Assembly: GCA_023137075.1 (NCBI GenBank)
Contig: JAGLQA010000240.1
Location: forward strand, 1-37,423
Direction of reading: 5' to 3'
DNA: 37,423 bases
DNA from: Candidatus Aminicenantes bacterium
GTDB taxonomy: Bacteria; Acidobacteriota; Aminicenantia; UBA2199
Below, piece after piece: positions 18,843 through 35,787 of the stretch (positions are counted from its first letter, which is position 1; each line of letters begins with the position of its first letter). Under the pieces are notes generated by a model. The model was given only the letters and a program-made list of their open reading frames with translations. It did no database searches and was not told the DNA's origin. Made by a program: the position numbers and the translations under genes.

Positions 18843-19067
18843 GAATGTGTGAAACCATTTCATCATGTTTTTTTCGTGAAGCAACGCCTATAGTTTTATT
18901 GTGTTTTTTAGCGAGTTAATTCAGTGAGTTTGAAATTTCAGTGAAACGAACCGGGCGCAAGTGAAACATGGACTGCGAATCCGTTCCCCCAAAAACACTT
19001 TCAGGAATCTTACTTACGGAGCAAAGGCAGCGAGCATGTTACACGGTTTCTAAAAAAAAGATTCGTT

Positions 19068-20450
19068 TTATTTGTGGAATTTTTTGATAAAATCCTCGAC
19101 TTCCGGAATGCCGCCCTGGTAAACCAGGTAACCGTTGTAAGGCTCACCCTCTGTGATGTCGCCGCCGATAGGAGTCAGCATGATTTCTTTGACCTTATCT
19201 AAATCGCCGGTCTGTCCTAAAGCCCAGCCTAACTTGATATAGGCCACTTCAGGCAGCATGTTTTCCGCCGGAATGACTCCCTTGCTCATCATGTCACGGC
19301 CCGTTTCGTATACATTCATGTGTACGAAACCCCACAGGGTTTGCACAGTCATGTAAACCGCCACCCCGGCTCGCCGGGCTCTTTCTAAGGCCGGGTAGAG
19401 GGGTTTGTTTACATGCCCGAGACCGGTGCCGGCGATTATAATTCCTTTGTAACCTTTCTCTACTACGGCGTCGATAATGTCCGGGTTCATGTTGGGATAA
19501 TAGTAGACCATGGTGACCCGCTCTTCAAAATAGGGATAGATGTCTACTTTTTTGTCTTTCCTGCGATGGTTGTAGTCCTCGCGCAGGGGGGTGATTTTAT
19601 CCCGCTTGACCATGGCCAGGGGAATATCTCCAATAGTTCTAAAGGCGGAACGGTATGAAGAGTGCATTTTCCTGACCCGGGTGCCGCGGTGCAGCAGGGC
19701 GTACTCATCGGAGGTCGGGCCGAACATGCAAACCAAAACTTCCGCTATATCGGCCTGGGAGGCAGCGGTGGTGGAATGGATCAGGTTCAGGGCGGCGTCG
19801 GATGAAGGCCGGTCGGAAGAACGCTGGGAGCCGACCATAACGATGGGCACCGGTGAGTTTTGCACCATGTAGGAAAGCGCGGCAGCGGTGTGATGCATGG
19901 TATCCGTGCCGTGACCGATAACAATGCCGTCAATCCCTTTCTCGATCTCTTTACCGATGGCTTTGGCCAGGGTGGTATACTGCTCCGGCCCCATGTTCTC
20001 GCTGAAAACAGCAAAGAGTTTTTCCGTGGATAAGTTGCATATATCGGCCAGTTCCGGGACCGCGCCGTAAAGCTCGCCCGGGGAAAAAGCGGGAATCACC
20101 GCACCGGTGCGGTAATCCAGGCGGGAAGCGATGGTTCCCCCGGTGCCGAACAACTTGATGTTGGGCTTTTCCGGAGAGGTGGGGAACTCCTTTTCCGGGA
20201 TTTTGTATTTCGCTTCTTTGTAGCCGTATTCTTTCATTTCGATAATAGAATCGATGGCAATGCCGATGTTGTACCCTGTATCCAGTTTTAATACTAAGTG
20301 TTTAGCGTCGTCATTTTCCGAACGGGGCAGGATAATCCCTTCAAACTCGCCGCGGGTGGTTTCGATCTTCGCTTCACTCCAGACCCGCACCTTAAATTTC
20401 TTCAATATCTCCAGCGCTTTTCCCTTGTAGCCTTTGAACATATCACTCAT
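19068..20450 (-). CDS. gatD: Glutamyl-tRNA(Gln) amidotransferase subunit D (archaeal-type, asparaginase-like)
   Basis: 460 aa. After a GatD-specific N-terminal domain come the asparaginase-family motifs FGTGGTIAS, GHGTDTMHHTAAALS and GSQRSSDRPSSDAALN. An 8-bp overlap links it to the upstream gatE. Confidence 0.85.
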   Translation of the reverse strand: MSDMFKGYKGKALEILKKFKVRVWSEAKIETTRGEFEGIILPRSENDDAKHLVLKLDTGYNIGIAIDSIIEMKEYGYKEAKYKIPEKEFPTSPEKPNIKLFGTGGTIASRLDYRTGAVIPAFSPGELYGAVPELADICNLSTEKLFAVFSENMGPEQYTTLAKAIGKEIEKGIDGIVIGHGTDTMHHTAAALSYMVQNSPVPIVMVGSQRSSDRPSSDAALNLIHSTTAASQADIAEVLVCMFGPTSDEYALLHRGTRVRKMHSSYRSAFRTIGDIPLAMVKRDKITPLREDYNHRRKDKKVDIYPYFEERVTMVYYYPNMNPDIIDAVVEKGYKGIIIAGTGLGHVNKPLYPALERARRAGVAVYMTVQTLWGFVHMNVYETGRDMMSKGVIPAENMLPEVAYIKLGWALGQTGDLDKVKEIMLTPIGGDITEGEPYNGYLVYQGGIPEVEDFIKKFHK

Positions 20451-22491
20451 CGTTGCCTCCGTTACCGGCAGCCACTTTAGTATGAAGTTCCGACAGCCTC
20501 ATATTTCCTAGTGCCGGGGGGCGTAATTGCCCCATTACCCATCGTATCATGGCCGATTCATTCTCGGAATTCGAGATATCGCTAAATTTTTCTTTTAATA
20601 CCGGGATACTGTCTAAAATGTCTTCTTCGGACTTTGGTTTGTACTCGATGGTAGTCAGTACCGACTCGAAATCCATATTCGGGTATTGGTAAACAACCGG
20701 CAGCATCTGTTTCAGGATGTCCCGTTTCAGTTTCTTTTTTATGATAAAATCGACCAGGTGATATATGCGGTCGTAAGTGAAGGGAGACGAAGGTGTGATC
20801 TGCCCTTCGATGTATTTCAAATGATGGCCGATCAAGCTGCCGATAAATTTTGGCGATTGGTTGAAGTCTTCGACAATTTTTTCAACCAGGGGGAACAGGT
20901 TCCGTTTTAACAGGTAGCAAAAGGTATCCCCCGGTATTTGCCATTTCTTCATTTGTTTCATGCAGTCCGAAACCTCGCGGGGAAGAATTTTCCGGATGCC
21001 CTGGATGTGGTCTTCTTCGATAGGGATGGGAGGTGAGTCGGTATCCGGGTACATGCGATTCGGTCCGGGCAGCACACGTTCAAAGATGGTGGTGCCGTCC
21101 GCGATGGATTTGCGCGTTTCATTGGGCACGCCTTCAAAGGCCCATTTACAGCGTTCTTCAATCGTTTCGATGGCGGTGGCGATATCGTCTTCCGGCCCCC
21201 ATAAGATCAATTGGGCATCATTATCTCCGCTCTTAAATAGTTTCCGCACCGCGGCAAAATCCACACCGTGTCCGTTGAGTGCCTGGTTGAATCCCTCTTC
21301 CTGCCGCAGGTTCGCAGGTGTATTCCCTTTTTTATTCATGTACCAGGGCTCGGAATGGATCATATTGGGCTTCTCGATGCAGGCGATTACTTTCAACCGG
21401 TCGCTCAATTCATTGGCAAAAGATTTTCCCGGCTGGGTAAAGAATGAGAGGATTCCTTTGAATCCCGGCAGGTTGACTGCCACCCAGTGGTATCGATTCG
21501 CCTTTTTCTTATCGATGAACGTAGGTATTTCAATAATATGGTTGGGGGAGACCGGTTTATGGGTCATCTTCCACTTTGCCGGGTTCGGGAAACGTTCATT
21601 CAAGGTTTTTTTTATCTCCAGCAGCGCTTTCTGGCGGAAGGCTTCGTTATGAGTCAACAGGGGTATCCGGGCGATATGGGCCACGCCTTTGATCTCCACC
21701 CGTGTTCCGCCATCGATACTGACATTCACATCCTCTCGGGCGGCGCCGATACCGGTTTGCACCTTGCCGGTGCTGCGGGTTAAAAACCGGATGTAGTGGG
21801 CTGCTTCCGCCGCTTCATCCGGGGTCAACAAGTCGGGATAGGTTACGGTTTCGATCAGCGGTATGCCCAAACGGTCTGTGGTATATATACGCTCATGGCC
21901 GATATCCGACACTTCCCGGCAGGATTCTTCCTCTATACTCAATTGAATGATACGGACTTTTTTGTTTTTCAGGGGAATCTCGCCTTCGATTCCCACGATG
22001 GCGGTGCGCTGGAAACCGGTGGGGATACTGCCGTCTAAGTACTGCTTCCGGGTAATATGCAGTTCTCCCACGACGTTGGTTTTCAGGAGCAGGGCCACTT
22101 CGATGGCAATATCGAGGGCTTCGCGATTGAGTGGAAAAGGGGGTGTGTCGTCGATATCGTAGGTACAGGCGGTTTGGTTGTTGATGCGGTAGGTGATATT
22201 TTTCTTCGTTTTAAACTCCATCAAGGCGGTGCCGTCATACTCACCCAATTCGCTCAAGGTCGGGCGCATGTGGCGCAAAATTTCGGCATTGAAGTCGTCA
22301 GGGTCATGGTAAATCCCCGCCGGACAGCGGCAGAAGAGTTTCTTTTTGGTTTTCAACTGTTGATGGATTTCATGGCCGCATTTAAATCCCAAATCGGAGT
22401 AGGTTTCCCGGGTGGCTTCTTTTTTCTCGACGTAACCGGTAATTTTTTTTGTATTGATGTAATTGTGTTCTGGGCTAAAATTATTCTTCAT
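20443..22491 (-). CDS. gatE: Glutamyl-tRNA(Gln) amidotransferase subunit E (archaeal-type, GatB paralogue)
   Basis: 682 aa. It has GFKCGHEIHQQL..KLFCRCP near the N-terminus, a cradle domain with an insertion, and a C-terminal helical tail domain. It is much longer than bacterial GatB and is paired with gatD. Confidence 0.8.
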   Translation of the reverse strand: MKNNFSPEHNYINTKKITGYVEKKEATRETYSDLGFKCGHEIHQQLKTKKKLFCRCPAGIYHDPDDFNAEILRHMRPTLSELGEYDGTALMEFKTKKNITYRINNQTACTYDIDDTPPFPLNREALDIAIEVALLLKTNVVGELHITRKQYLDGSIPTGFQRTAIVGIEGEIPLKNKKVRIIQLSIEEESCREVSDIGHERIYTTDRLGIPLIETVTYPDLLTPDEAAEAAHYIRFLTRSTGKVQTGIGAAREDVNVSIDGGTRVEIKGVAHIARIPLLTHNEAFRQKALLEIKKTLNERFPNPAKWKMTHKPVSPNHIIEIPTFIDKKKANRYHWVAVNLPGFKGILSFFTQPGKSFANELSDRLKVIACIEKPNMIHSEPWYMNKKGNTPANLRQEEGFNQALNGHGVDFAAVRKLFKSGDNDAQLILWGPEDDIATAIETIEERCKWAFEGVPNETRKSIADGTTIFERVLPGPNRMYPDTDSPPIPIEEDHIQGIRKILPREVSDCMKQMKKWQIPGDTFCYLLKRNLFPLVEKIVEDFNQSPKFIGSLIGHHLKYIEGQITPSSPFTYDRIYHLVDFIIKKKLKRDILKQMLPVVYQYPNMDFESVLTTIEYKPKSEEDILDSIPVLKEKFSDISNSENESAMIRWVMGQLRPPALGNMRLSELHTKVAAGNGGNDE

Positions 22492-24516: not shown

Positions 24517-25629
24517 ATGCCGTCCGCAAAGGAAGGAAGTGGAGTACTGAAAAGACATAAAAAGAAAGCGAAGCACCTGCTGATAGACCCGGAAAAGTTT
24601 ATCGATAACGGCAACAGCGGTATCTTCGTGCCCCAGTTCCTTATGCAGAAGTATAAATTGGTGGAAGGGGCAGCCGTTACCGGCCCAATAAAGAACGGCC
24701 GGGGGGGGCCTATGCTGGCGGGTATAAAAACCGTCTGCGGGCTTTCACCGGAGGTTTTCAAAAAACGCAGAGCCTATACCCAGTTGACTGCCTTACCACC
24801 GGACCGGCGTTTCAACCTGGCCCTAGACGGTGAACCGGCCATGCGGATCGTTGACCTGGTGGCTCCCATTGCCAAAGGGACCCGAGGTTTGATCGTTTCG
24901 CCTCCCCGTGCCGGAAAAACCATCCTGTTGGAACAAATTGCCAAAGCCATTCATACTTTTGATCCGGAGACCAGGATCATCGTGCTGCTGGTTGACGAAC
25001 GTCCCGAAGAAGTCACCCATTTTCGCCGCAAGGTGAAGGCAGAGGTGTTAGCCAGTTCCAATGACCTTGATATCCGCCAGCACATCGAGTTAACCGAATT
25101 TGTAATGGCCCACGTGGTAGCCGAATTGGAGTGCGGTAAGAATGTAGTCGTACTGGTTGACAACCTGACTCGCATGTCCAGGGCGTTCAACTTAGGGGGG
25201 CGAAGTTCCCGGAAAAATAGAGGCCGCATCATGTCCGGCGGACTGCAGGCAGGTGCGCTGGAAATTCCGCGCCGGTTTTTCGGCCTGGCGCGCAACATAG
25301 AGAACGGCGGTTCCGTTACCATTATCGCTACCATATTGGTGGATACCGGTTCACGAATGGATCAATTGATATTCGAGGAATTTAAGGGTACCGGTAATTG
25401 TGAAATTATATTAGACCGCAGCCTGGCGGAAGCCCGGATTTTTCCGGCGATCAATATTAATGCCAGCGGTACGCGAAAAGAGGAGCTGCTCTACCCGGCC
25501 AATCATTATAAACAGATTTCCCGGCTGCGCCGGGCCCTGGCAAATCTCAATCCCAAAGATGGGATGGAATTATTCCTGAAATTTCTAAAAAAATATCCCA
25601 CTAACGAGGATTTCCTGAACGAAACCTGA
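24517..25629 (+). CDS. rho: Transcription termination factor Rho with a shortened, divergent N-terminal region
   Basis: 370 aa. It has Walker A (PPRAGKTILL), LLVDERPEEV, the Q/R-loop region, and FEEFKGTGNCEIILDR..RIFPAINI..SGTRKEELL, which aligns with E. coli Rho by eye. The N-terminal helix bundle is absent and the GFGFLR segment is not conserved. Confidence 0.9.
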   Translation: MPSAKEGSGVLKRHKKKAKHLLIDPEKFIDNGNSGIFVPQFLMQKYKLVEGAAVTGPIKNGRGGPMLAGIKTVCGLSPEVFKKRRAYTQLTALPPDRRFNLALDGEPAMRIVDLVAPIAKGTRGLIVSPPRAGKTILLEQIAKAIHTFDPETRIIVLLVDERPEEVTHFRRKVKAEVLASSNDLDIRQHIELTEFVMAHVVAELECGKNVVVLVDNLTRMSRAFNLGGRSSRKNRGRIMSGGLQAGALEIPRRFFGLARNIENGGSVTIIATILVDTGSRMDQLIFEEFKGTGNCEIILDRSLAEARIFPAININASGTRKEELLYPANHYKQISRLRRALANLNPKDGMELFLKFLKKYPTNEDFLNET

Positions 25630-25734
25630 TACCTGCTCGAACATTCCGGTTATATAAAAAAAATCCGCCTTCTATAGAAATACTCTTGAATATGCTCACT
25701 TTGACTTTTCAAAATTAGAATTGCCGGATTTTCA

Positions 25735-25763
25735 TTGACTTTAATCACAATCTATTGTAGAAT
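25735..25763 (+). promoter_or_regulatory. Putative sigma70 promoter (TTGACT-17 bp-TAGAAT) bracketed by an ATCACA/TGTGAT inverted repeat
   Basis: TTGACT at 25735-25740, a 17-nt spacer, and TAGAAT at 25758-25763. The inverted repeat ATCACA (25744-25749) / TGTGAT (25763-25768) spans the spacer and the -10. Confidence 0.5.
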
Positions 25764-25862
25764 GTGATCTTATGATGATGGAACTGTTTTATAAACGAGT
25801 TCTTGTCGGGGGACACCTTATGCATCCGGATCAGATTACATTAAAAAATCAGGAGATAAAAC

Positions 25863-25985
25863 ATGGACAAAATGATTGAAAAATTAAGTCTGAAAACCTT
25901 AAGTCTTGAAGAGTTGAACAAAGTCAAGGGAGGTTCGCCCCCCATTTTTATTATACCTCCGGGGATACCCGGTTCCGGTGGTTAA
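25863..25985 (+). CDS. 40-aa precursor peptide with a double-glycine (bacteriocin-type) leader
   Basis: This ORF is not in the track (<60 aa). AGGAG at 25851-25855 lies 7 nt before the ATG. The translation is MDKMIEKLSLKTLSLEELNKVKGG / SPPIFIIPPGIPGSGG. The leader matches LSxxELxxVxGG at positions -12, -11, -8, -7, -4, -2 and -1. Confidence 0.6.
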   Translation: MDKMIEKLSLKTLSLEELNKVKGGSPPIFIIPPGIPGSGG

Positions 25986-26066
25986 ATAGACTGAAAGGGC
26001 AAATCTAAGACCCGGAAAAAGCGTTTCTCTCATAAGAGGGTGATTTTTACTCCCTGGAGGATTAGT

Positions 26067-27191
26067 CTATTTTAAACTTTCGCGGTTTTCGAAGGAGCGG
26101 TTGATGGAAAATTCGCTGAAATCCGTATCCCACTCACCCTGGATTATGTAGTGAGCCAGGTGTTTGGCAATGGCTGGCCCGAACATAAAACCGTGTCCGC
26201 TCATCCCGGAGGCCACGTATAACCCGTCGACCGGCGATTCACCCACCAGGGGATTCCCATCCGGGGTCATGGTATAACATCCGGCCCAATGTCTCAATAT
26301 GGAGGCATTCTTGATGGCCGGGACAAGACGGGTCATGCGCCAGGCAACATTGGGCACAAATTCGAAGGACGCGTCATCCCTGATGCCGGGCACATTGGGG
26401 ATTGGGGTATAGCAGCCGCAAATCTGACCGCTGATGAATTGATTAAAATAACAGCCGTCCTCCCGGTAGTCGACCACCATGGGTTCTAAAAACTTCGGCA
26501 TGCGTTCCGTGATAATGGCTTCGTGCCGTTCCGGGGATAAAGGCAAATCTAACCCGATTGTTTGAGCGATTTCCGCGGTCCAGGGGCCGGCGCACAGGAG
26601 AACTTTTTCACTCTCGATCCGGGTGCCGTCCTGTAACATGATAACAAAAGGATTGGTTTTTTCTATTTTCTCTACTTTGTTGTGAAGGAATAAAGCGCCC
26701 TTATGTCTTTCGATTTGTTGTTTATAGCCTTTTAAAACCGCGAAGGGAAAAGCCTGGCCGTCGTCCGGGCAGTAAGCGGCAGCGTGAAGATTCTCCAGGT
26801 TCAGATGGGGCACCACTTTGTTTGCTTCACCGGGTGTTAATAAGGAGACATTCACCTTTTCTTTTTTCTGTATTTCGATATTGGCTTTAAAAATATCCAC
26901 CATTTTTTCGCTGTGGGCCAGCAGCAGGTAGCCGCCCTGGTGAAACTCCACCGGGAAACCGAACTCCTCTTCCATTTTAGAAAATAGTTCGATGCTTTCC
27001 CTCATTAACCGTATGGAGGTGGAGGTGGAGAATTGCTGCCTGATGCCGCCGATGCAGCGCCCGGTTGACCCGGAGCCGAGATATTCTCGTTCTATTAGCG
27101 CTATTTTAATTCCTTTTCGGGCCAGGTAGCAGCCTGTGCCCATCCCGATGATGCCTCCACCGATAATCGCAACATCATAATTGTGTTTCAT
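26067..27191 (-). CDS. FAD-dependent oxidoreductase, DAO family (sarcosine oxidase beta / L-proline dehydrogenase beta / HcnC-like)
   Basis: I moved the start to the ATG at 27191 (MKHNYDVAIIGGGIIGMGTGCYLARKG, GxGxxG at the N-terminus), which forms an ATGA overlap with the upstream gene. The track start at 27326 would add 45 non-homologous residues. Confidence 0.75.
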   Translation of the reverse strand: MKHNYDVAIIGGGIIGMGTGCYLARKGIKIALIEREYLGSGSTGRCIGGIRQQFSTSTSIRLMRESIELFSKMEEEFGFPVEFHQGGYLLLAHSEKMVDIFKANIEIQKKEKVNVSLLTPGEANKVVPHLNLENLHAAAYCPDDGQAFPFAVLKGYKQQIERHKGALFLHNKVEKIEKTNPFVIMLQDGTRIESEKVLLCAGPWTAEIAQTIGLDLPLSPERHEAIITERMPKFLEPMVVDYREDGCYFNQFISGQICGCYTPIPNVPGIRDDASFEFVPNVAWRMTRLVPAIKNASILRHWAGCYTMTPDGNPLVGESPVDGLYVASGMSGHGFMFGPAIAKHLAHYIIQGEWDTDFSEFSINRSFENRESLK

Positions 27192-27466
27192 GATTCCTCT
27201 CCTTCTACTTGAATAAAGGCGCTGACTGTCACCGGTTTTAACGGCGGCCTTTTTCTCCATTCTTCGATGTTTTGCAGGCTTGTATTTAACTTTCGCGCCA
27301 GCATGGACCGCAGGATAGGCCCACATGTCCTACCCTGGCAGGGTCCCATCCCGGCCCGGAGGAAACGTTTAATCTCTTCAAGGGTGGTGATTCCCGAATC
27401 GAGGGCTTCTTTCACCATTTCTTCCGTAATATCTTCGCATCTGCAAATCAGTATGTTATCACTCAT
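27188..27466 (-). CDS. Small BFD-like [2Fe-2S]-binding protein
   Basis: 92 aa. The CRCEDIT..GMGPCQGRTCGP pattern is characteristic of BFD-like 2Fe-2S domains. ATGA-type overlaps occur at both ends. Confidence 0.7.
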   Translation of the reverse strand: MSDNILICRCEDITEEMVKEALDSGITTLEEIKRFLRAGMGPCQGRTCGPILRSMLARKLNTSLQNIEEWRKRPPLKPVTVSAFIQVEGEES

Positions 27467-27954
27467 TTTTTCCTCCTGAAACCCCTGACGGTTTTCACGA
27501 GATCTTTTTCCATTTTCAATGAGACGGAAAGGGTGCGGTCATGTTGTTTTAGTTTTTTTACCTTTTCGATTTCCCCCTCTCCCACGACCTTTCCGGCCCG
27601 GTCGAGCAGGTCGACAATTTCGCCCTGGTCGGGAGGTTCGATTTCATAGGGAATAGTAACCACCCCGTGATTTTTCGACAAATCGACCATAAAAATGGCC
27701 AGGCCCGGGCAGAAGCCGAGACAGATACCGCAGCCGGTGCATTTTTCAAAATCGATGGTCGGCACGGCGTTTATGTTGCCTGCCACTTTTATGGCGCCAA
27801 CGGGGCAGTATTCCATGCAGGGATTACAGGGAATTTCCTGGCAGCATTCGATGACGGCCGCCGCCCTTTTTTTCATTCGTTCTTCTGAAGGGAATTCGAT
27901 CTGATCGTTAGAAAAATGACCCTTTCTTATACAATCCATCTTACTGCAGTCCAT
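27463..27954 (-). CDS. 4Fe-4S ferredoxin-domain protein
   Basis: I chose the start at 27954 (MDCSKMDC..) because GAGGAGG lies upstream. The Cys motifs CNPCMEYCP and CTGCGICLGFCP are present. Confidence 0.65.
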   Translation of the reverse strand: MDCSKMDCIRKGHFSNDQIEFPSEERMKKRAAAVIECCQEIPCNPCMEYCPVGAIKVAGNINAVPTIDFEKCTGCGICLGFCPGLAIFMVDLSKNHGVVTIPYEIEPPDQGEIVDLLDRAGKVVGEGEIEKVKKLKQHDRTLSVSLKMEKDLVKTVRGFRRKK

Positions 27955-29380
27955 TTTTTCTTGCCTCCTCTTCCAGTTTTTGATTACCGATGCGGATTTT
28001 CTCACCAAAGGGGCCTTCTCTTAATTCCTTTAGTTCCAACCGGTTCTTTTCCCGTTCTTCTATCAACTCCGGGCTGCCGCCGCTGACCTTTTCGGCTGCG
28101 CTCAAGCCGGCTATTCGTCCTTCCATCATCGCGGACGAGGCTTCCTCGATTCCGGAAATATCACCGGCAATAAAAACACCGGGGAGCGAGGTCTCCATAT
28201 TTTCGTTATGGGGGTTGATATATCCACCCAATTCGGGAATATAGGTTTGTCTTGCCCCGGCCTGGGATAAAATTTCGATCGAGGGTGACAGACCGACTGC
28301 CAGGCCCACGGTATCGCAGTCGAATTTCTTTTCTGTCCCGGCGATGGGCTGCCATTGTTTATCGACTTCTACGACTTCAGCGCCTTCCACGCGGCTGCTG
28401 CCGAATACGCGTGAGATGGTATGAGATGTGTATATCGGGACTCCCAGGCGTTTGATTTTCGCCGAATGGACTAAGTAAGCGCCGATTCTCGGCAGTCCCT
28501 CGATGACGGCGGCGACTTCGACACCGGCCTGAAGCAGTTGATAGGCGACTATCGCACCGATATTCCCCGCGCCCACCATCAATACTTTTTTCCCCGGGGT
28601 TATGCCGTAAACATTCATCAGGGTCTGGATCGCTCCGGCGCCGTACACTCCGGGCAGGTCGTTCCCGATGAAGGGCACCATTTTTTCCGAAGCGCCGGTA
28701 GCGATTAAAATCGTTTTTGCCTTGACTCGCACATATTTCCCCTGCCTCTCTACTCCGAGAATATTTCCCGGGTAATACCCGATAACGGAAGAGGATGTCC
28801 AGGTTTCAATTTCTTTTTTACGGGCATCTTTGATCAAAATTCCGGCAATATCGATGCCCCTGACCCCGGCATAATGTGAACGGCTGCCGAAAAATTTATG
28901 GGTTTGTTTGATTAATTGACCGCCTAAAAGAAAATTTTCCTCTATGATTAAGGGTTTGATGCCGTAGCGGGCGGCATACAGGGCGGCGGAAAGACCGGCC
29001 GGTCCCCCGCCTACGACGGCGAAATCGGTTTCGACGGTCGGCGTCTCTTTAAATTCGGGATACCCGGTAAAGGATTCCGGTGAGACAACGGACTTAGATT
29101 GCGGTTTGACTCTCATGCCCTCTTTCACCGGTATGATACAGGTGCGCATATTGGGTACGCCATCCACTTCCATGATGCATGACGCGCATTTCCCGATGGC
29201 GCAGTATAATCCCCTGGGGCGATGGAAACGAAAACTTTCGGATAATGTGGTAATACCGGCGGCATGGAGCGCGGCCGTAATGGACTCGCCCTCATAGGCT
29301 GTAACCGGTTGGCCTTCATAGTAAATGGTAATCTTTTTTTCTCGGGCAAACTCGAGAATAGGATGTTTGTCAATCCTCAT
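27941..29380 (-). CDS. Fused [2Fe-2S] plus FAD/NAD(P)-binding oxidoreductase (sarcosine oxidase alpha / proline dehydrogenase alpha-like)
   Basis: 479 aa. The N-terminal Fer2_4-like segment (YEGESITAAL..CAIGKCASCIMEVDG..MRTC) is followed by two dinucleotide folds (VVGGGPAGLSAALYAA and VGAGNIGAIVAYQL). An AGGAG precedes the ATG. Confidence 0.75.
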   Translation of the reverse strand: MRIDKHPILEFAREKKITIYYEGQPVTAYEGESITAALHAAGITTLSESFRFHRPRGLYCAIGKCASCIMEVDGVPNMRTCIIPVKEGMRVKPQSKSVVSPESFTGYPEFKETPTVETDFAVVGGGPAGLSAALYAARYGIKPLIIEENFLLGGQLIKQTHKFFGSRSHYAGVRGIDIAGILIKDARKKEIETWTSSSVIGYYPGNILGVERQGKYVRVKAKTILIATGASEKMVPFIGNDLPGVYGAGAIQTLMNVYGITPGKKVLMVGAGNIGAIVAYQLLQAGVEVAAVIEGLPRIGAYLVHSAKIKRLGVPIYTSHTISRVFGSSRVEGAEVVEVDKQWQPIAGTEKKFDCDTVGLAVGLSPSIEILSQAGARQTYIPELGGYINPHNENMETSLPGVFIAGDISGIEEASSAMMEGRIAGLSAAEKVSGGSPELIEEREKNRLELKELREGPFGEKIRIGNQKLEEEARKNGLQ

Positions 29381-29443
29381 GTCAGCTCCTTATCGACATA
29401 GTGTGGAAGGTGTAGAAATGTAATACATATGACGGTTTAGCAT

Positions 29444-29480
29444 TGATATAATTTATATCATAACAATATAATCAAGTCAA
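29444..29480 (-). promoter_or_regulatory. Putative sigma70 promoter (TTGACT-17 bp-TATAAA) with a 17-bp perfect palindrome over the -10
   Basis: On the minus strand, TTGACT is at 29480-29475, followed by a 17-nt spacer and TATAAA at 29457-29452. The palindrome TGATATAA-T-TTATATCA occupies 29444-29460. Confidence 0.5.
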
Positions 29481-29556
29481 TAATAAATCCGGAATCCGGT
29501 AGGGCGTACTCTTGCGGCCTCCCGGAAAAAATTTAATGGGATTTTTATTTTATTGC

Positions 29557-30975
29557 CTAGCGGTTGTCGTGATAGCCCAACAGGGAGGCAATGGATACGG
29601 GCTTGACCGGGGGCCTGACGGAAAACCGGCCCACTTCCTGCGGGGATTTTTGCGTTAAGGCGCTCAGGATATCATAGATAATGGGGCCGCAAATACGGCC
29701 CTGGCAATTGCCCATCCCGGTCCGTACCGCCGTTTTTAAGGAGACCGGCGTATTAAAATCTGCTTGCACGGCTTTCTTAATATCTGCCATGGTGACATCT
29801 TCGCAGCGGCATACAATGGTTTCGTCGGGGATATCCAGGATCGTACTCTCCGGGATTTTGTAGAGTAAATTGAAATATTCGCCAAACTTGAGGTGGTGTT
29901 TTCTTTCCCGGCTCAAGGATTTCAACCTAAGAAAATAGTCATCCTCCGCGATTTTATCGAATCTTCTTAAGATCGCTAAGGCCGCTGTTTTTCCTTCATT
30001 GATGGATTTCAGAGCGCCACCTATACCGGTGATTTCACCTCCCGCGAATATGTCTTCTCTGGTAGTGAGCATTTCATCGTTCACCCTGACGACCCAGCCG
30101 CCTTTCGCGTCAGAGTAGTCCAACTTGCATTCCGCTAATTGGGGCAGTTCGATATTGGCTGTAAAACCGTAACCCACGGCCAGCGCCCCGGTTTTATGGA
30201 TTTTTTCAGTCCCGGGAATGATACTGCCCGATTTGTTGACCCGGGCCGTCACTACCTCTTGCAGTGATTCTTTTCCCCTGGCCTCGACTATCTTCCGCCT
30301 GAATTTAACCGGCACACCTGAGAGAAAAATTTTCGATAGAAATTTCGCGCCTTCAACGAACTTTGGGAACTGGTGGAAAAGTTGGCTGATTAATTTCATC
30401 TTGTCCAACATGGCGGTCTGTTCAAGAATGGCTGTTACCCCGGCGCGGTTCCGCAGCGTTTCGTAAGCCACGGCAAAGAGAAAGAGCCCCGAACCGCCAA
30501 TCAGGATTTTTTCGGCGAGTAAAACCCCGGAGGTTTTCATTAAGACCTGGGCCAGGCCGGTGGAATAAACACCCGGTAGTGTCCAGCCTTTAAAGGGGAA
30601 AAATCTCTCCCTGGCACCGGTGGCAAATAATATAACATCAAAGTTGACGGTTATGACCTCTTTTTCGTCCACTTCGACCAGGATTTTCTTTTCCGGGTAA
30701 ATACCGATAACCACGCCCCGGTTGATAATCGTCACTTTTTTTGTTTTCAAACATTCGATGAATTTAAAGCCGATTTTTTTGACATAATCCGGATGATAGA
30801 CGGGGTATTCGCTTAATTTATCAGGAATTTTTCGCAGCAATTGGCCGCCGATGTAGATGTTTTCGTCGATCAGTACGATATCCAGGTTCGACTCGGAAAG
30901 TATATTTGCCGCGACGATACCGGCAAAGCCGCTGCCCACGATGACGACATTGAATTTATTTTTCCTATTACTCAT
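29557..30975 (-). CDS. NAD(P)/FAD-dependent oxidoreductase with a C-terminal BFD-like [2Fe-2S] domain (HcnB / opine oxidase A-like)
   Basis: I moved the start to 30975 (MSNRKNKFNVVIVGSGFAGIVAANIL), which overlaps the stop of the upstream gene by 8 bp. The C-terminus reads CRCEDVT..GMGNCQGRICGP. Confidence 0.75.
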   Translation of the reverse strand: MSNRKNKFNVVIVGSGFAGIVAANILSESNLDIVLIDENIYIGGQLLRKIPDKLSEYPVYHPDYVKKIGFKFIECLKTKKVTIINRGVVIGIYPEKKILVEVDEKEVITVNFDVILFATGARERFFPFKGWTLPGVYSTGLAQVLMKTSGVLLAEKILIGGSGLFLFAVAYETLRNRAGVTAILEQTAMLDKMKLISQLFHQFPKFVEGAKFLSKIFLSGVPVKFRRKIVEARGKESLQEVVTARVNKSGSIIPGTEKIHKTGALAVGYGFTANIELPQLAECKLDYSDAKGGWVVRVNDEMLTTREDIFAGGEITGIGGALKSINEGKTAALAILRRFDKIAEDDYFLRLKSLSRERKHHLKFGEYFNLLYKIPESTILDIPDETIVCRCEDVTMADIKKAVQADFNTPVSLKTAVRTGMGNCQGRICGPIIYDILSALTQKSPQEVGRFSVRPPVKPVSIASLLGYHDNR

Positions 30976-31249
30976 CAAATGCGATCTCCATCTTATTCTC
31001 GACCTGGCACATGCAGGCCCTCTTGTTGGGGATACCGTTGATGGTAACCAGGCATTCGAAGCAGACACCCATTCCACACAGGGCGCCCCGTTTTCCCTTT
31101 AGAAAAGCACTTCTTTTCAGCGATTTGTACCCGGAGGCGATGAGTGCGGCCAGCACGGTTTCGCCTTCATAGGCGGGTAATTGGTTCCCGTTCACCAGGA
31201 TATTTACTTTTTCTTTTCTTATTATTTGTTTTATTCGCAAGCCCTTCAT
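30968..31249 (-). CDS. Small [2Fe-2S]-binding protein (HcnA / sarcosine oxidase alpha N-terminal-like)
   Basis: 93 aa. The pattern YEGETVLAAL..CGMGVCFECLVTING..RACMC matches the Fer2_4 type. Confidence 0.7.
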   Translation of the reverse strand: MKGLRIKQIIRKEKVNILVNGNQLPAYEGETVLAALIASGYKSLKRSAFLKGKRGALCGMGVCFECLVTINGIPNKRACMCQVENKMEIAFDE

Positions 31250-35442: not shown

Positions 35443-35787
35443 ATGGCACGGGAAATAGAAGTCTATCTAAATGATATTTTTGAAAGTATAAATCTAATAG
35501 AAGATTATGTGAAAGACATAGATGTGGATGAGTTTGCCGGTAATATTCAACTTCAGGATGCTGTAGTAAGACGATTTGAAATTATAGGTGAAGCTGCTAA
35601 ACAGATACCTGATGACATTAGGGAACGATATCCACATATCCCCTGGAGGAAGATGGCTGGATTGAGGGATGTGTTGATTCACCATTATTTTGGAGTGAGT
35701 GTTATGAGAGTATGGAGATTAATTAAAAAAGAACTCACCCAGGTAAAGGAGGACATCTATAATCTCATTTCTGAATTAGCTTATTGA
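35443..35787 (+). CDS. hepT: HEPN-domain (DUF86) toxin
   Basis: 114 aa with an R-x4-H motif (RDVLIHHYF) near the C-terminus. A 4-nt gap separates it from the MNT gene. Confidence 0.8.

Follow-up and report, generated by a model that had tools for sequence, protein, structure and literature searches.

The 37,423-nucleotide contig JAGLQA010000240.1 of Candidatus Aminicenantes bacterium (assembly GCA_023137075.1), the whole stretch of which is referred to here as the window, carries a small open reading frame (ORF; 25863-25985) in the 437 bp gap between rho (end at 25629) and a DAO-family gene (stop at 26067). This ORF is a genuine protein-coding gene under purifying selection. By profile comparison, the N-terminal part of its product is homologous to a double-glycine (GG) leader of the TIGR04149 type. 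Taken as a whole, the gene is probably best explained as a monocistronic unit with its own sigma-70-type promoter, encoding the GG-leader precursor of a secreted peptide that would be cleaved and exported in trans by a C39-peptidase ABC exporter (PCAT). A preliminary description, based on the letters of the window, had likewise proposed a promoter-driven small gene with a double-glycine leader, and the conservation of frame and promoter and the homology of the leader bear this out. The ORF, its ribosome-binding site (RBS), the promoter, an inverted repeat, the 437 bp gap and a 35-codon upstream ORF are all located as it had described.

Relatives of the peptide were sought among 5.8 billion proteins using the single sequence and two profiles. 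An exhaustive HMMER pass with a two-sequence profile over 1.84 billion representatives returned only the proteins P0002 and P0003 and one spurious repeat protein. Counting database matches together with ORFs read from the fetched loci, the family comprises ten distinct members in all public data searched. These are the window member (leader MDKMIEKLSLKTLSLEELNKVKGG, core SPPIFIIPPGIPGSGG), one member at locus L006 (leader MDELTKQPTMEELSSEELNKVRGG, core SPPIFIIPPGIPGSGG), two tandem genes, a and b, at L038 (leader MDELTKQTTMEELSSEEQKKIQGG and core APPRIIIVPDSGD; leader MDEMIKKLSLQTLSGEELNKVRGG and core SPPRMIIPPLDPDSEG), one member at L039 (leader MNKKTKQQEIKLKTLSPEEQNKLRGG, core SPPRMIIPRNPDDGG) and a five-gene tandem array at L034 with the cores VPPIIIIRDPD, SSPKIIVVRDPD, SAPIIIIPSFPPGSGG, SPPRMIIPPRDPD and SSPRIIIEDSVIDSGGG. 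The exact window peptide has been predicted by public gene callers in five assemblies, without a name or a Pfam match. A further 31-residue ORF, P0011, on a 685 bp contig of ENA, has a leader of the L038a type (MDELTKQTTMEELSSEEQKKIQ) followed by RPVNLDKVE in place of the GG and core, and may be a disrupted or recombined member of the family.

The frame is intact in all ten members, which span 114-138 nt in six length classes, every one a multiple of three. An RBS of the GGAG type lies 5-8 nt upstream in nine of the ten copies, the remaining one (L038b) having a degenerate GAAGAG. When pairs from different loci are compared, substitutions in the S-P-P-x-(I/M/F)-I-I block at the start of the core number 54/26/139 at codon positions 1/2/3, with 80 synonymous and 73 nonsynonymous codon differences; in the LSxEELNKxxGG block of the leader the corresponding counts by codon position are 86/63/117. 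We take this codon-position bias, together with the synonymous changes, to show purifying selection on the protein. The core of the window member is the same in L006, with one synonymous change, and the syntenic orthologues beside the same DAO gene retain the frame despite the recombination of different paralogue segments. Loss of the frame in related genomes had been named in the preliminary description as an outcome that would overturn the call; the frame is kept.

The leader of the window peptide has 24 residues and ends in K-G-G, with Leu at -15 and -12, Ser at -11, Glu at -8, Leu at -7, Val at -4 and the two glycines at -2 and -1. The C39 domains of PCATs read hydrophobic residues at -4, -7 and -12 on a leader helix, cut after GG, GA or GS and tolerate diverse cores (PMC10885120); the window peptide carries the residues called for at every one of these positions. 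A strict pattern (hydrophobic residues at -15, -12, -7 and -4, Ser at -11, Glu at -8, Gly at -2 and Gly, Ala or Ser at -1) has a single match among the 332 small ORFs of the window and 0.003 matches per Markov-shuffled window. The motif by itself would nevertheless be only moderately convincing, because a loose pattern specifying the hydrophobic positions alone matches about once per shuffle and is not significant on its own. More telling is the relationship to P0012, a peptide of locus L040 with the leader MKKLKRLNLTQLSSEELSRREQNKLRGG and a core beginning SSCCICSC, which is retrieved by the hidden Markov model of the family. With 39.1 bits against the TIGR04149 model, P0012 is a bona fide member of that group, encoded in a cluster with a TIGR04148 radical S-adenosylmethionine (rSAM) maturase, a TIGR04150 pseudo-rSAM protein, a 737-residue C39-ABC transporter and an HlyD adaptor. 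Alignment of the family profile with P0012 by hhalign gives a probability of 94% over 22 columns, covering the leader and the GG/S junction. Sub-threshold matches to NCBIfam and Pfam models are exclusively to GG-leader families. A search of PDB sequences with the family profile gave no match. An AlphaFold2 model places a helix at residues 15-22, directly before the GG, with a mean predicted local distance difference test score (pLDDT) of 83 for residues 11-20; in the model the remainder is disordered.

The cores are 11-17 residues long and follow leaders of 24-28 residues. As the preliminary description had stated for the window peptide, they are free of Cys, and this is true of all ten; their net charge ranges from -0.5 to -2.5 (neutral to acidic). 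Their N-termini share the conserved S-P-P-x-(I/M/F)-I-I block, in which Pro+3 and Ile+6 are invariant, and their C-terminal tails diverge (RDPD, PDSGD, DPDSEG, NPDDGG, PGSGG and DSGGG). The mature window product SPPIFIIPPGIPGSGG would be a peptide of 16 residues with a computed mass of 1504.83 Da if unmodified.

The features of the locus are listed in Table 1. The predicted promoter, with ten of the 12 consensus positions matched, is well supported because its -35 element, TTGAC(T/G), its 17-nt spacing and its -10 element, TAnnAT, align at five independent loci (the window, L006, L038, L034 and L039); that the gene has a promoter of its own, as had been claimed, is in keeping with this conservation. 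A second TTGACT/TAGAAT pair (25701-25721, forward strand), 34 nt further upstream with a spacer of only 9 nt, looks like a partial, non-functional duplication of the promoter. The inverted repeat overlapping the spacer and the -10 element is present as first described. No locus beyond one close relative conserves it: L038 retains arms of 5 bp, L006 has lost the right one, and L034 and L039 lack the repeat altogether. A weakly supported role as an operator, lineage-specific at best, is all that we would propose for it, and the idea of a family-wide operator was dropped since only the closest relatives keep the repeat.

Table 1. Features of the peptide gene and its surroundings in the window (forward-strand numbering).
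Feature	Position	Strand	Details
Sigma-70-type promoter (predicted)	25735..25763	+	-35 TTGACT 25735-25740, 17-nt spacer, -10 TAGAAT 25758-25763
Inverted repeat ATCACA-N13-TGTGAT	25744..25768	.	arms 25744-25749 and 25763-25768; overlaps spacer and -10
5' untranslated region (UTR), ~90-100 nt	25771..25862	+	transcription start inferred from the -10; holds AGGAG
Upstream ORF, 35 codons	25772-25879	+	starts 8 nt after the -10
RBS AGGAG	25851-25855	+	7 nt 5' of ATG
Peptide ORF	25863-25985	+	40 codons, encodes MDKMIEKLSLKTLSLEELNKVKGGSPPIFIIPPGIPGSGG
Leader, codons 1-24 (predicted)	25863..25934	+	MDKMIEKLSLKTLSLEELNKVKGG
Core, codons 25-40 and stop (predicted)	25935..25985	+	SPPIFIIPPGIPGSGG; stop 25983-25985
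Weak intrinsic-terminator-like hairpin	26027..26050	+	CTCTCATAAGAGGG then TGATTTTTAC; kept in L006, partly in L038

The 5' UTR has no Rfam match at gathering or E-value thresholds, folds no better than shuffled sequences (z = +1.03) and shows no covariation in alignment folding; its conservation equals the background divergence of the three DAO-linked loci (91% and 86% identity). Riboswitch and attenuator ideas were dropped, as Rfam and both single-sequence and alignment folding of the 5' UTR and 3' region remained at the level of chance. The upstream ORF, about which the preliminary description was rightly in doubt (a leaderless ORF or chance), encodes similar residues for 14 codons in L006 and L038, after which indels of 2-4 nt in a run of G change the frame. 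It has no RBS, no family match and no counterpart upstream of the L034 or L039 members; with its frame lost after codon 14 it is unsupported as a gene and is probably a chance ORF. The folding energy of the terminator-like hairpin downstream of the peptide gene does not exceed that of shuffled sequences. Read on the reverse strand (25925-25944), the G-G-S-P-P codons give a hairpin rich in G+C (GGGGGGCGAACCTCCC), after which comes a run rich in T; this element was scored as terminator-like. It lies ~125 nt beyond the stop codon of the convergent DAO gene and could, as a side effect, contribute to termination of the DAO operon.

The gene had been regarded as an orphan. It belongs instead to a small family of several copies, some of them in tandem arrays of two to five genes, and the window copy itself is what is left of one such array. 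The two genes of L038 lie beside the same DAO gene as that of the window. Over codons 1-15 the window gene matches L038b (38/45 nt) and the L006 gene matches L038a (42/45 nt), and from codon 16 onward both match L038b (25-26/27); both also have gene a's UTR in front and gene b's flank behind. These segment matches and flanks show the window gene to be a two-gene array that collapsed by recombination at the RBS/start region, and L006 to be a collapse within the leader. The leader N-terminus looks hypervariable between the window and L006, which are otherwise 91% identical loci, because the points of collapse differ. The reading frame survived both events, and the N-terminal ~12 residues were swapped between paralogues without loss of the gene.

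Copy number varies among arrays of the L034 type: three of them (L034, L035 and L048) have five genes and two (L036 and L037) have four; in all five contigs (863-1765 in L034) the genes are separated by spacers of ~60-90 bp that repeat the RBS region. In the GenBank metagenome-assembled genome (MAG) GCA_023135565.1 only one of the five paralogues, the last, is listed as called, and all five ORFs are intact. The five array contigs all stop ~20-205 bp past a divergent gene for a 122-residue protein, which suggests an unassembled repeat just upstream of the array.

The family is rare and restricted in lineage. All of its assignable members are from Candidatus Aminicenantes, the MAG with the array being named Candidatus Aminicenantes bacterium by NCBI. 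Orthologues of the adjacent DAO gene, at 68% identity or less, occur in MAGs of Candidatus Aminicenantes and Acidobacteriota, and at 17 such orthologous loci of other Aminicenantes/Acidobacteriota MAGs the small ORF is absent downstream. A DNA scan for the core motif found no match in 185,579 species-representative genomes; ten matches in metagenomes were set aside as chance, having no leader in front. A search of viral contigs returned no family member.

The genes of the window are otherwise of a housekeeping kind: nitronate monooxygenase, a PDZ protein, NikR, UvrC, PilMNOPQ, a sulfatase, RsmB and Def, followed by GatD/GatE, MntP, UbiA, Rho, a DAO/ferredoxin/flavoprotein cluster, SppA, thioredoxin and an MNT/HepT pair. 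The ~10 kb past the end of the window hold ribonucleotide reductase, MraZ and the dcw cluster; an extension past the other end by way of the gene at 1427-2398 found no record. In these ~47 kb (the 37.4 kb window and the ~10 kb beyond) there is no C39 peptidase, ABC exporter, HlyD protein, rSAM enzyme, immunity-like gene or two-component system, in agreement with the earlier remark that the window lacks a PCAT, an immunity gene and a modification enzyme. Nor does a PCAT, membrane-fusion protein, maturase, immunity gene or sensor kinase lie beside the other members in four different genomic contexts, and a tblastn search of the collected loci with the L040 PCAT as probe gave only a generic ABC ATPase in L020. 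The L034-type array is flanked by a reductive-dehalogenase-like rdhABC set and the uncharacterised 122-residue protein, and the L039 member is followed by a truncated ORF without family assignment. On the reverse strand of L034 (1821-5344) the reductive-dehalogenase-like set consists of an FMN_bind/Fer4_5 membrane protein (RdhC/NosR-like), a VcrB-family anchor and a 550-residue Fer4 protein; beyond it lie CbiM and then an MNT nucleotidyltransferase.

Transcription of the DAO operon runs towards the peptide gene, and no gene follows the peptide ORF on its own strand. On the reverse strand (26067-31249) this operon encodes the DAO-family protein (374 residues), a 92-residue SO_alpha_A3/Fer2_BFD protein, a 163-residue protein with two [4Fe-4S] clusters and a 479-residue Pyr_redox_2 protein, and then a second pair of 472 and 93 residues. 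The best PDB match of the DAO protein is 1y56_B (E = 6e-68), the beta subunit of the L-proline dehydrogenase complex of Pyrococcus horikoshii. That a gene for a Pro-rich peptide should neighbour an operon resembling proline dehydrogenase genes is curious and probably coincidental, because other members of the family have unrelated neighbours, and a functional link was set aside for the same reason.

Several other features of the window were observed. From 18976 onward it is 99.9% identical to three other assemblies. Upstream of ~18850-18976, L001 and L002 have a large gene (839 and 801 residues; NACHT/NNH2 STAND-type in L001) and the window has Def, RsmB and the sulfatase; ~18850-18976 is a strain-level rearrangement or insertion breakpoint. 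The reverse strand at 19068-22491 encodes GatD (GatD_N and asparaginase domains) and a 682-residue GatE-like protein of the GatB_N type; the two make up the Glu-tRNA(Gln) amidotransferase pair of the archaeal type, in this case in a bacterium of the Aminicenantes. The 114-residue HepT toxin gene of the MNT/HepT pair (35443-35787, forward strand) is intact in the window and in L002, and is split into ORFs of 59 and 44 residues in GCA_030639905.1 (comparison with L001).

In the mechanism that we propose, the C39 domain of a PCAT-type ABC exporter, whose gene would lie elsewhere in the genome, would bind the short amphipathic helix LSLEELNKVK through the hydrophobic residues that this helix displays at -4, -7, -12 and -15. 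The exporter would cut after Gly24, and the 16-residue SPPIFIIPPGIPGSGG would leave the cell by a type I system with a membrane-fusion and an outer-membrane partner. The conserved N-terminal block of the core could serve as a recognition element for a common receptor or maturase, as is suggested by the invariant Pro+3 and Ile+6 and the position of the block after the GG, and the divergent tails could confer specificity. A diffusible signal or a trans-modified RiPP (ribosomally synthesised and post-translationally modified peptide) is a more likely product than a membrane-permeabilising bacteriocin or microcin, because the cores are short (11-17 residues), Cys-free and neutral to acidic, with a shared N-terminal block and divergent tails. 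Tandem multi-copy precursors with a common leader and varied cores are typical of RiPP and bacteriocin precursor families. PCAT substrates need not be encoded near their exporter, a situation that is under discussion for HetC (PMC10986499).

Several observations weigh against a secreted GG-leader precursor. The preliminary description had found all of the consensus leader positions satisfied, which stands for the window member and does not extend to its relatives. Position -7 is Gln, which is not hydrophobic, in seven of the ten members, as it is in P0012; the leader ends in GG in eight members and in A-G in the other two, and AG lies outside the canonical GG/GA/GS set (PMC10885120). No member reaches the cutoff of a curated GG-leader model. 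The check with TIGR01847 and TIGR04149 models that had been suggested gave 14.9 bits for the window peptide against a cutoff of 15.7 and 13.2 against 25, respectively, and ComC (PF03047) gave 14.7 against 20.4; TIGR01847 is matched at E<=1 by only two of the ten members and TIGR04149 weakly by four, with a best E-value of 0.029. The AlphaFold2 model as a whole is of modest confidence (mean pLDDT 66.9). The putative cleavage site does not interrupt the conservation, which carries on into the core, a pattern also compatible with a small protein that is never cut, and the absence of processing genes in the ~47 kb and beside the other members described above counts on the same side.

The alternative that survives best is a special case of the secreted precursor, namely a strict RiPP precursor. 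Here a maturase encoded elsewhere (rSAM or other) would be essential: it would recognise the leader that the members have in common and, while this GG leader is still attached, would epimerise, hydroxylate, cross-link or otherwise modify the S-P-P-x-I-I-I block, with one enzyme serving many scattered precursors as in the prochlorosins. The nearest leader relatives are rSAM-modified RiPPs of the TIGR04149 type, the invariant residues and block directly after the GG resemble an enzyme recognition or modification site, and the arrays are multi-copy with varied tails. No maturase is found near any member, however, and the residues that TIGR04148-related rSAM maturases usually target are scarce in the cores, Cys being absent and aromatic residues mostly so; we regard a strict RiPP as possible, with low confidence. 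More speculatively still, the family could be the precursor set of an unknown peptide-signalling or RiPP system of Aminicenantes, in which the S-P-P-x-Φ-I-I block would be a pharmacophore or a new modification site and the tails, variable and either acidic or rich in Gly, would define 'pherotypes', with recombining arrays and a dedicated PCAT in trans; this we offer as a tentative conjecture.

That the 40-residue protein acts as a whole, uncleaved, inside the cell or at the membrane, with the GG-leader likeness of residues 11-24 due to common ancestry or convergence, appears unlikely. It would account for the unbroken conservation across the GG, the lack of an exporter in any context, the failure to reach curated leader models and the Gln-7 and AG variants. 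Yet the homology to the PCAT-adjacent leader of P0012 spans exactly the leader and junction, the part after the GG is core-like in its variable length and divergent tails, and the N-terminal ~12 residues have been freely exchanged between paralogues. A cis-regulatory leader peptide is very improbable. Such a peptide, comparable to the ilv leader peptides in controlling neighbouring genes through its own translation, would sense the supply of Ile/Pro-tRNA or the activity of EF-P through its Ile/Pro-rich stretch, which contains PPG and PPI, and would have as its target the proline-dehydrogenase-like operon (the match to 1y56_B being to an L-proline dehydrogenase subunit). Orientation largely refutes it: no downstream gene is read in the direction of the peptide gene, the DAO operon runs towards it, and the ORF is followed by a terminator-like hairpin. 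Moreover, other members stand in groups of two to five beside unrelated genes, every one with a separate RBS, and no alternative-hairpin structure was found in the 5' UTR or 3' region. Finally, a chance intergenic ORF, for which one could cite its short length, the lack of a match at curated thresholds and its absence from the 17 DAO loci of other Aminicenantes species, is scarcely credible and is refuted by ten intact frames of frame-preserving length, mostly consensus RBSs, a conserved promoter, codon-position-specific substitution and retention of the frame through two separate recombination events.

The secreted GG-leader precursor thus remains the reading that we prefer. The family is previously undescribed and tiny, one more within the very large GG-leader class; no Pfam or NCBIfam model covers it. 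Aminicenantes are a group of uncultured bacteria abundant in sediments, and searches of the literature turned up no paper that brings them and double-glycine peptides together, nor any relevant work on RiPPs or bacteriocins in the phylum. Its unusual traits are the very short, Cys-free, Pro/Ile-rich cores, the conserved N-terminus of the core and the location of its loci away from processing genes. Small GG-leader genes are routinely overlooked by annotation, as the single called paralogue of the five-gene array illustrates. The family supplies a synthesisable set of 11-17-residue peptides, together with a leader for fishing the cognate exporter or maturase, and the reduction of a two-gene array to single genes, with breakpoints that differ, shows clearly how precursor arrays of this kind can evolve. 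If the conjectured Aminicenantes system were real, this candidate phylum would have its first system of peptide communication, or else a new core chemistry.

Among known systems, the class II microcins and bacteroidetocins are likewise GG-signal peptides of Gram-negative bacteria, exported by a type I system of PCAT, membrane-fusion protein and outer-membrane component (PMC12219008). Their signals have 15-18 residues and their mature parts tens of residues, and they are encoded near a PCAT and an immunity gene (PMC12219008), whereas the present family has leaders of 24-28 and mature parts of 11-17 residues that are neutral to acidic, with no PCAT or immunity gene nearby; its net charge is unlike that of cationic bacteriocins. 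With the Gram-positive pheromones ComC/CSP (competence-stimulating peptide) and BlpC (PF03047) the family shares a GG leader with hydrophobic residues at -4/-7/-12/-15, a short mature peptide of ~16-17 residues that looks unmodified, and allelic or paralogous variation of the mature part. It differs in its sub-threshold score against the ComC model, in the lack of an adjacent comAB-like exporter or comDE-like two-component system and in its presumably diderm host.

Precursors of the prochlorosin and Nif11/NHLP types are processed in trans, the enzymes and the PCAT being encoded at other loci. The family resembles them in having scattered or arrayed precursors with a conserved leader ending in GG and diverse cores (leaders: PMC10885120); their leaders, however, exceed 70 residues and are unrelated in sequence, and their cores are Cys/Ser/Thr-rich lanthipeptide substrates. 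The TIGR04149 (GG_sam_targ_CFB) precursors of rSAM-modified RiPPs in Bacteroidota have Cys-rich cores and lie beside genes for a TIGR04148 rSAM enzyme, TIGR04150, a PCAT and HlyD, in contrast to the Cys-free, Pro/Ile-rich cores of the present family, which has no such genes nearby, an Aminicenantes/Acidobacteriota host and a best score of 13.2 bits against the 25 of the model. Like them, nevertheless, the family consists of small, multi-copy peptides with a Lys-rich N-terminus and a leader of the form L-S-x-E-E-x-N-K-L-R-G-G followed by Ser.

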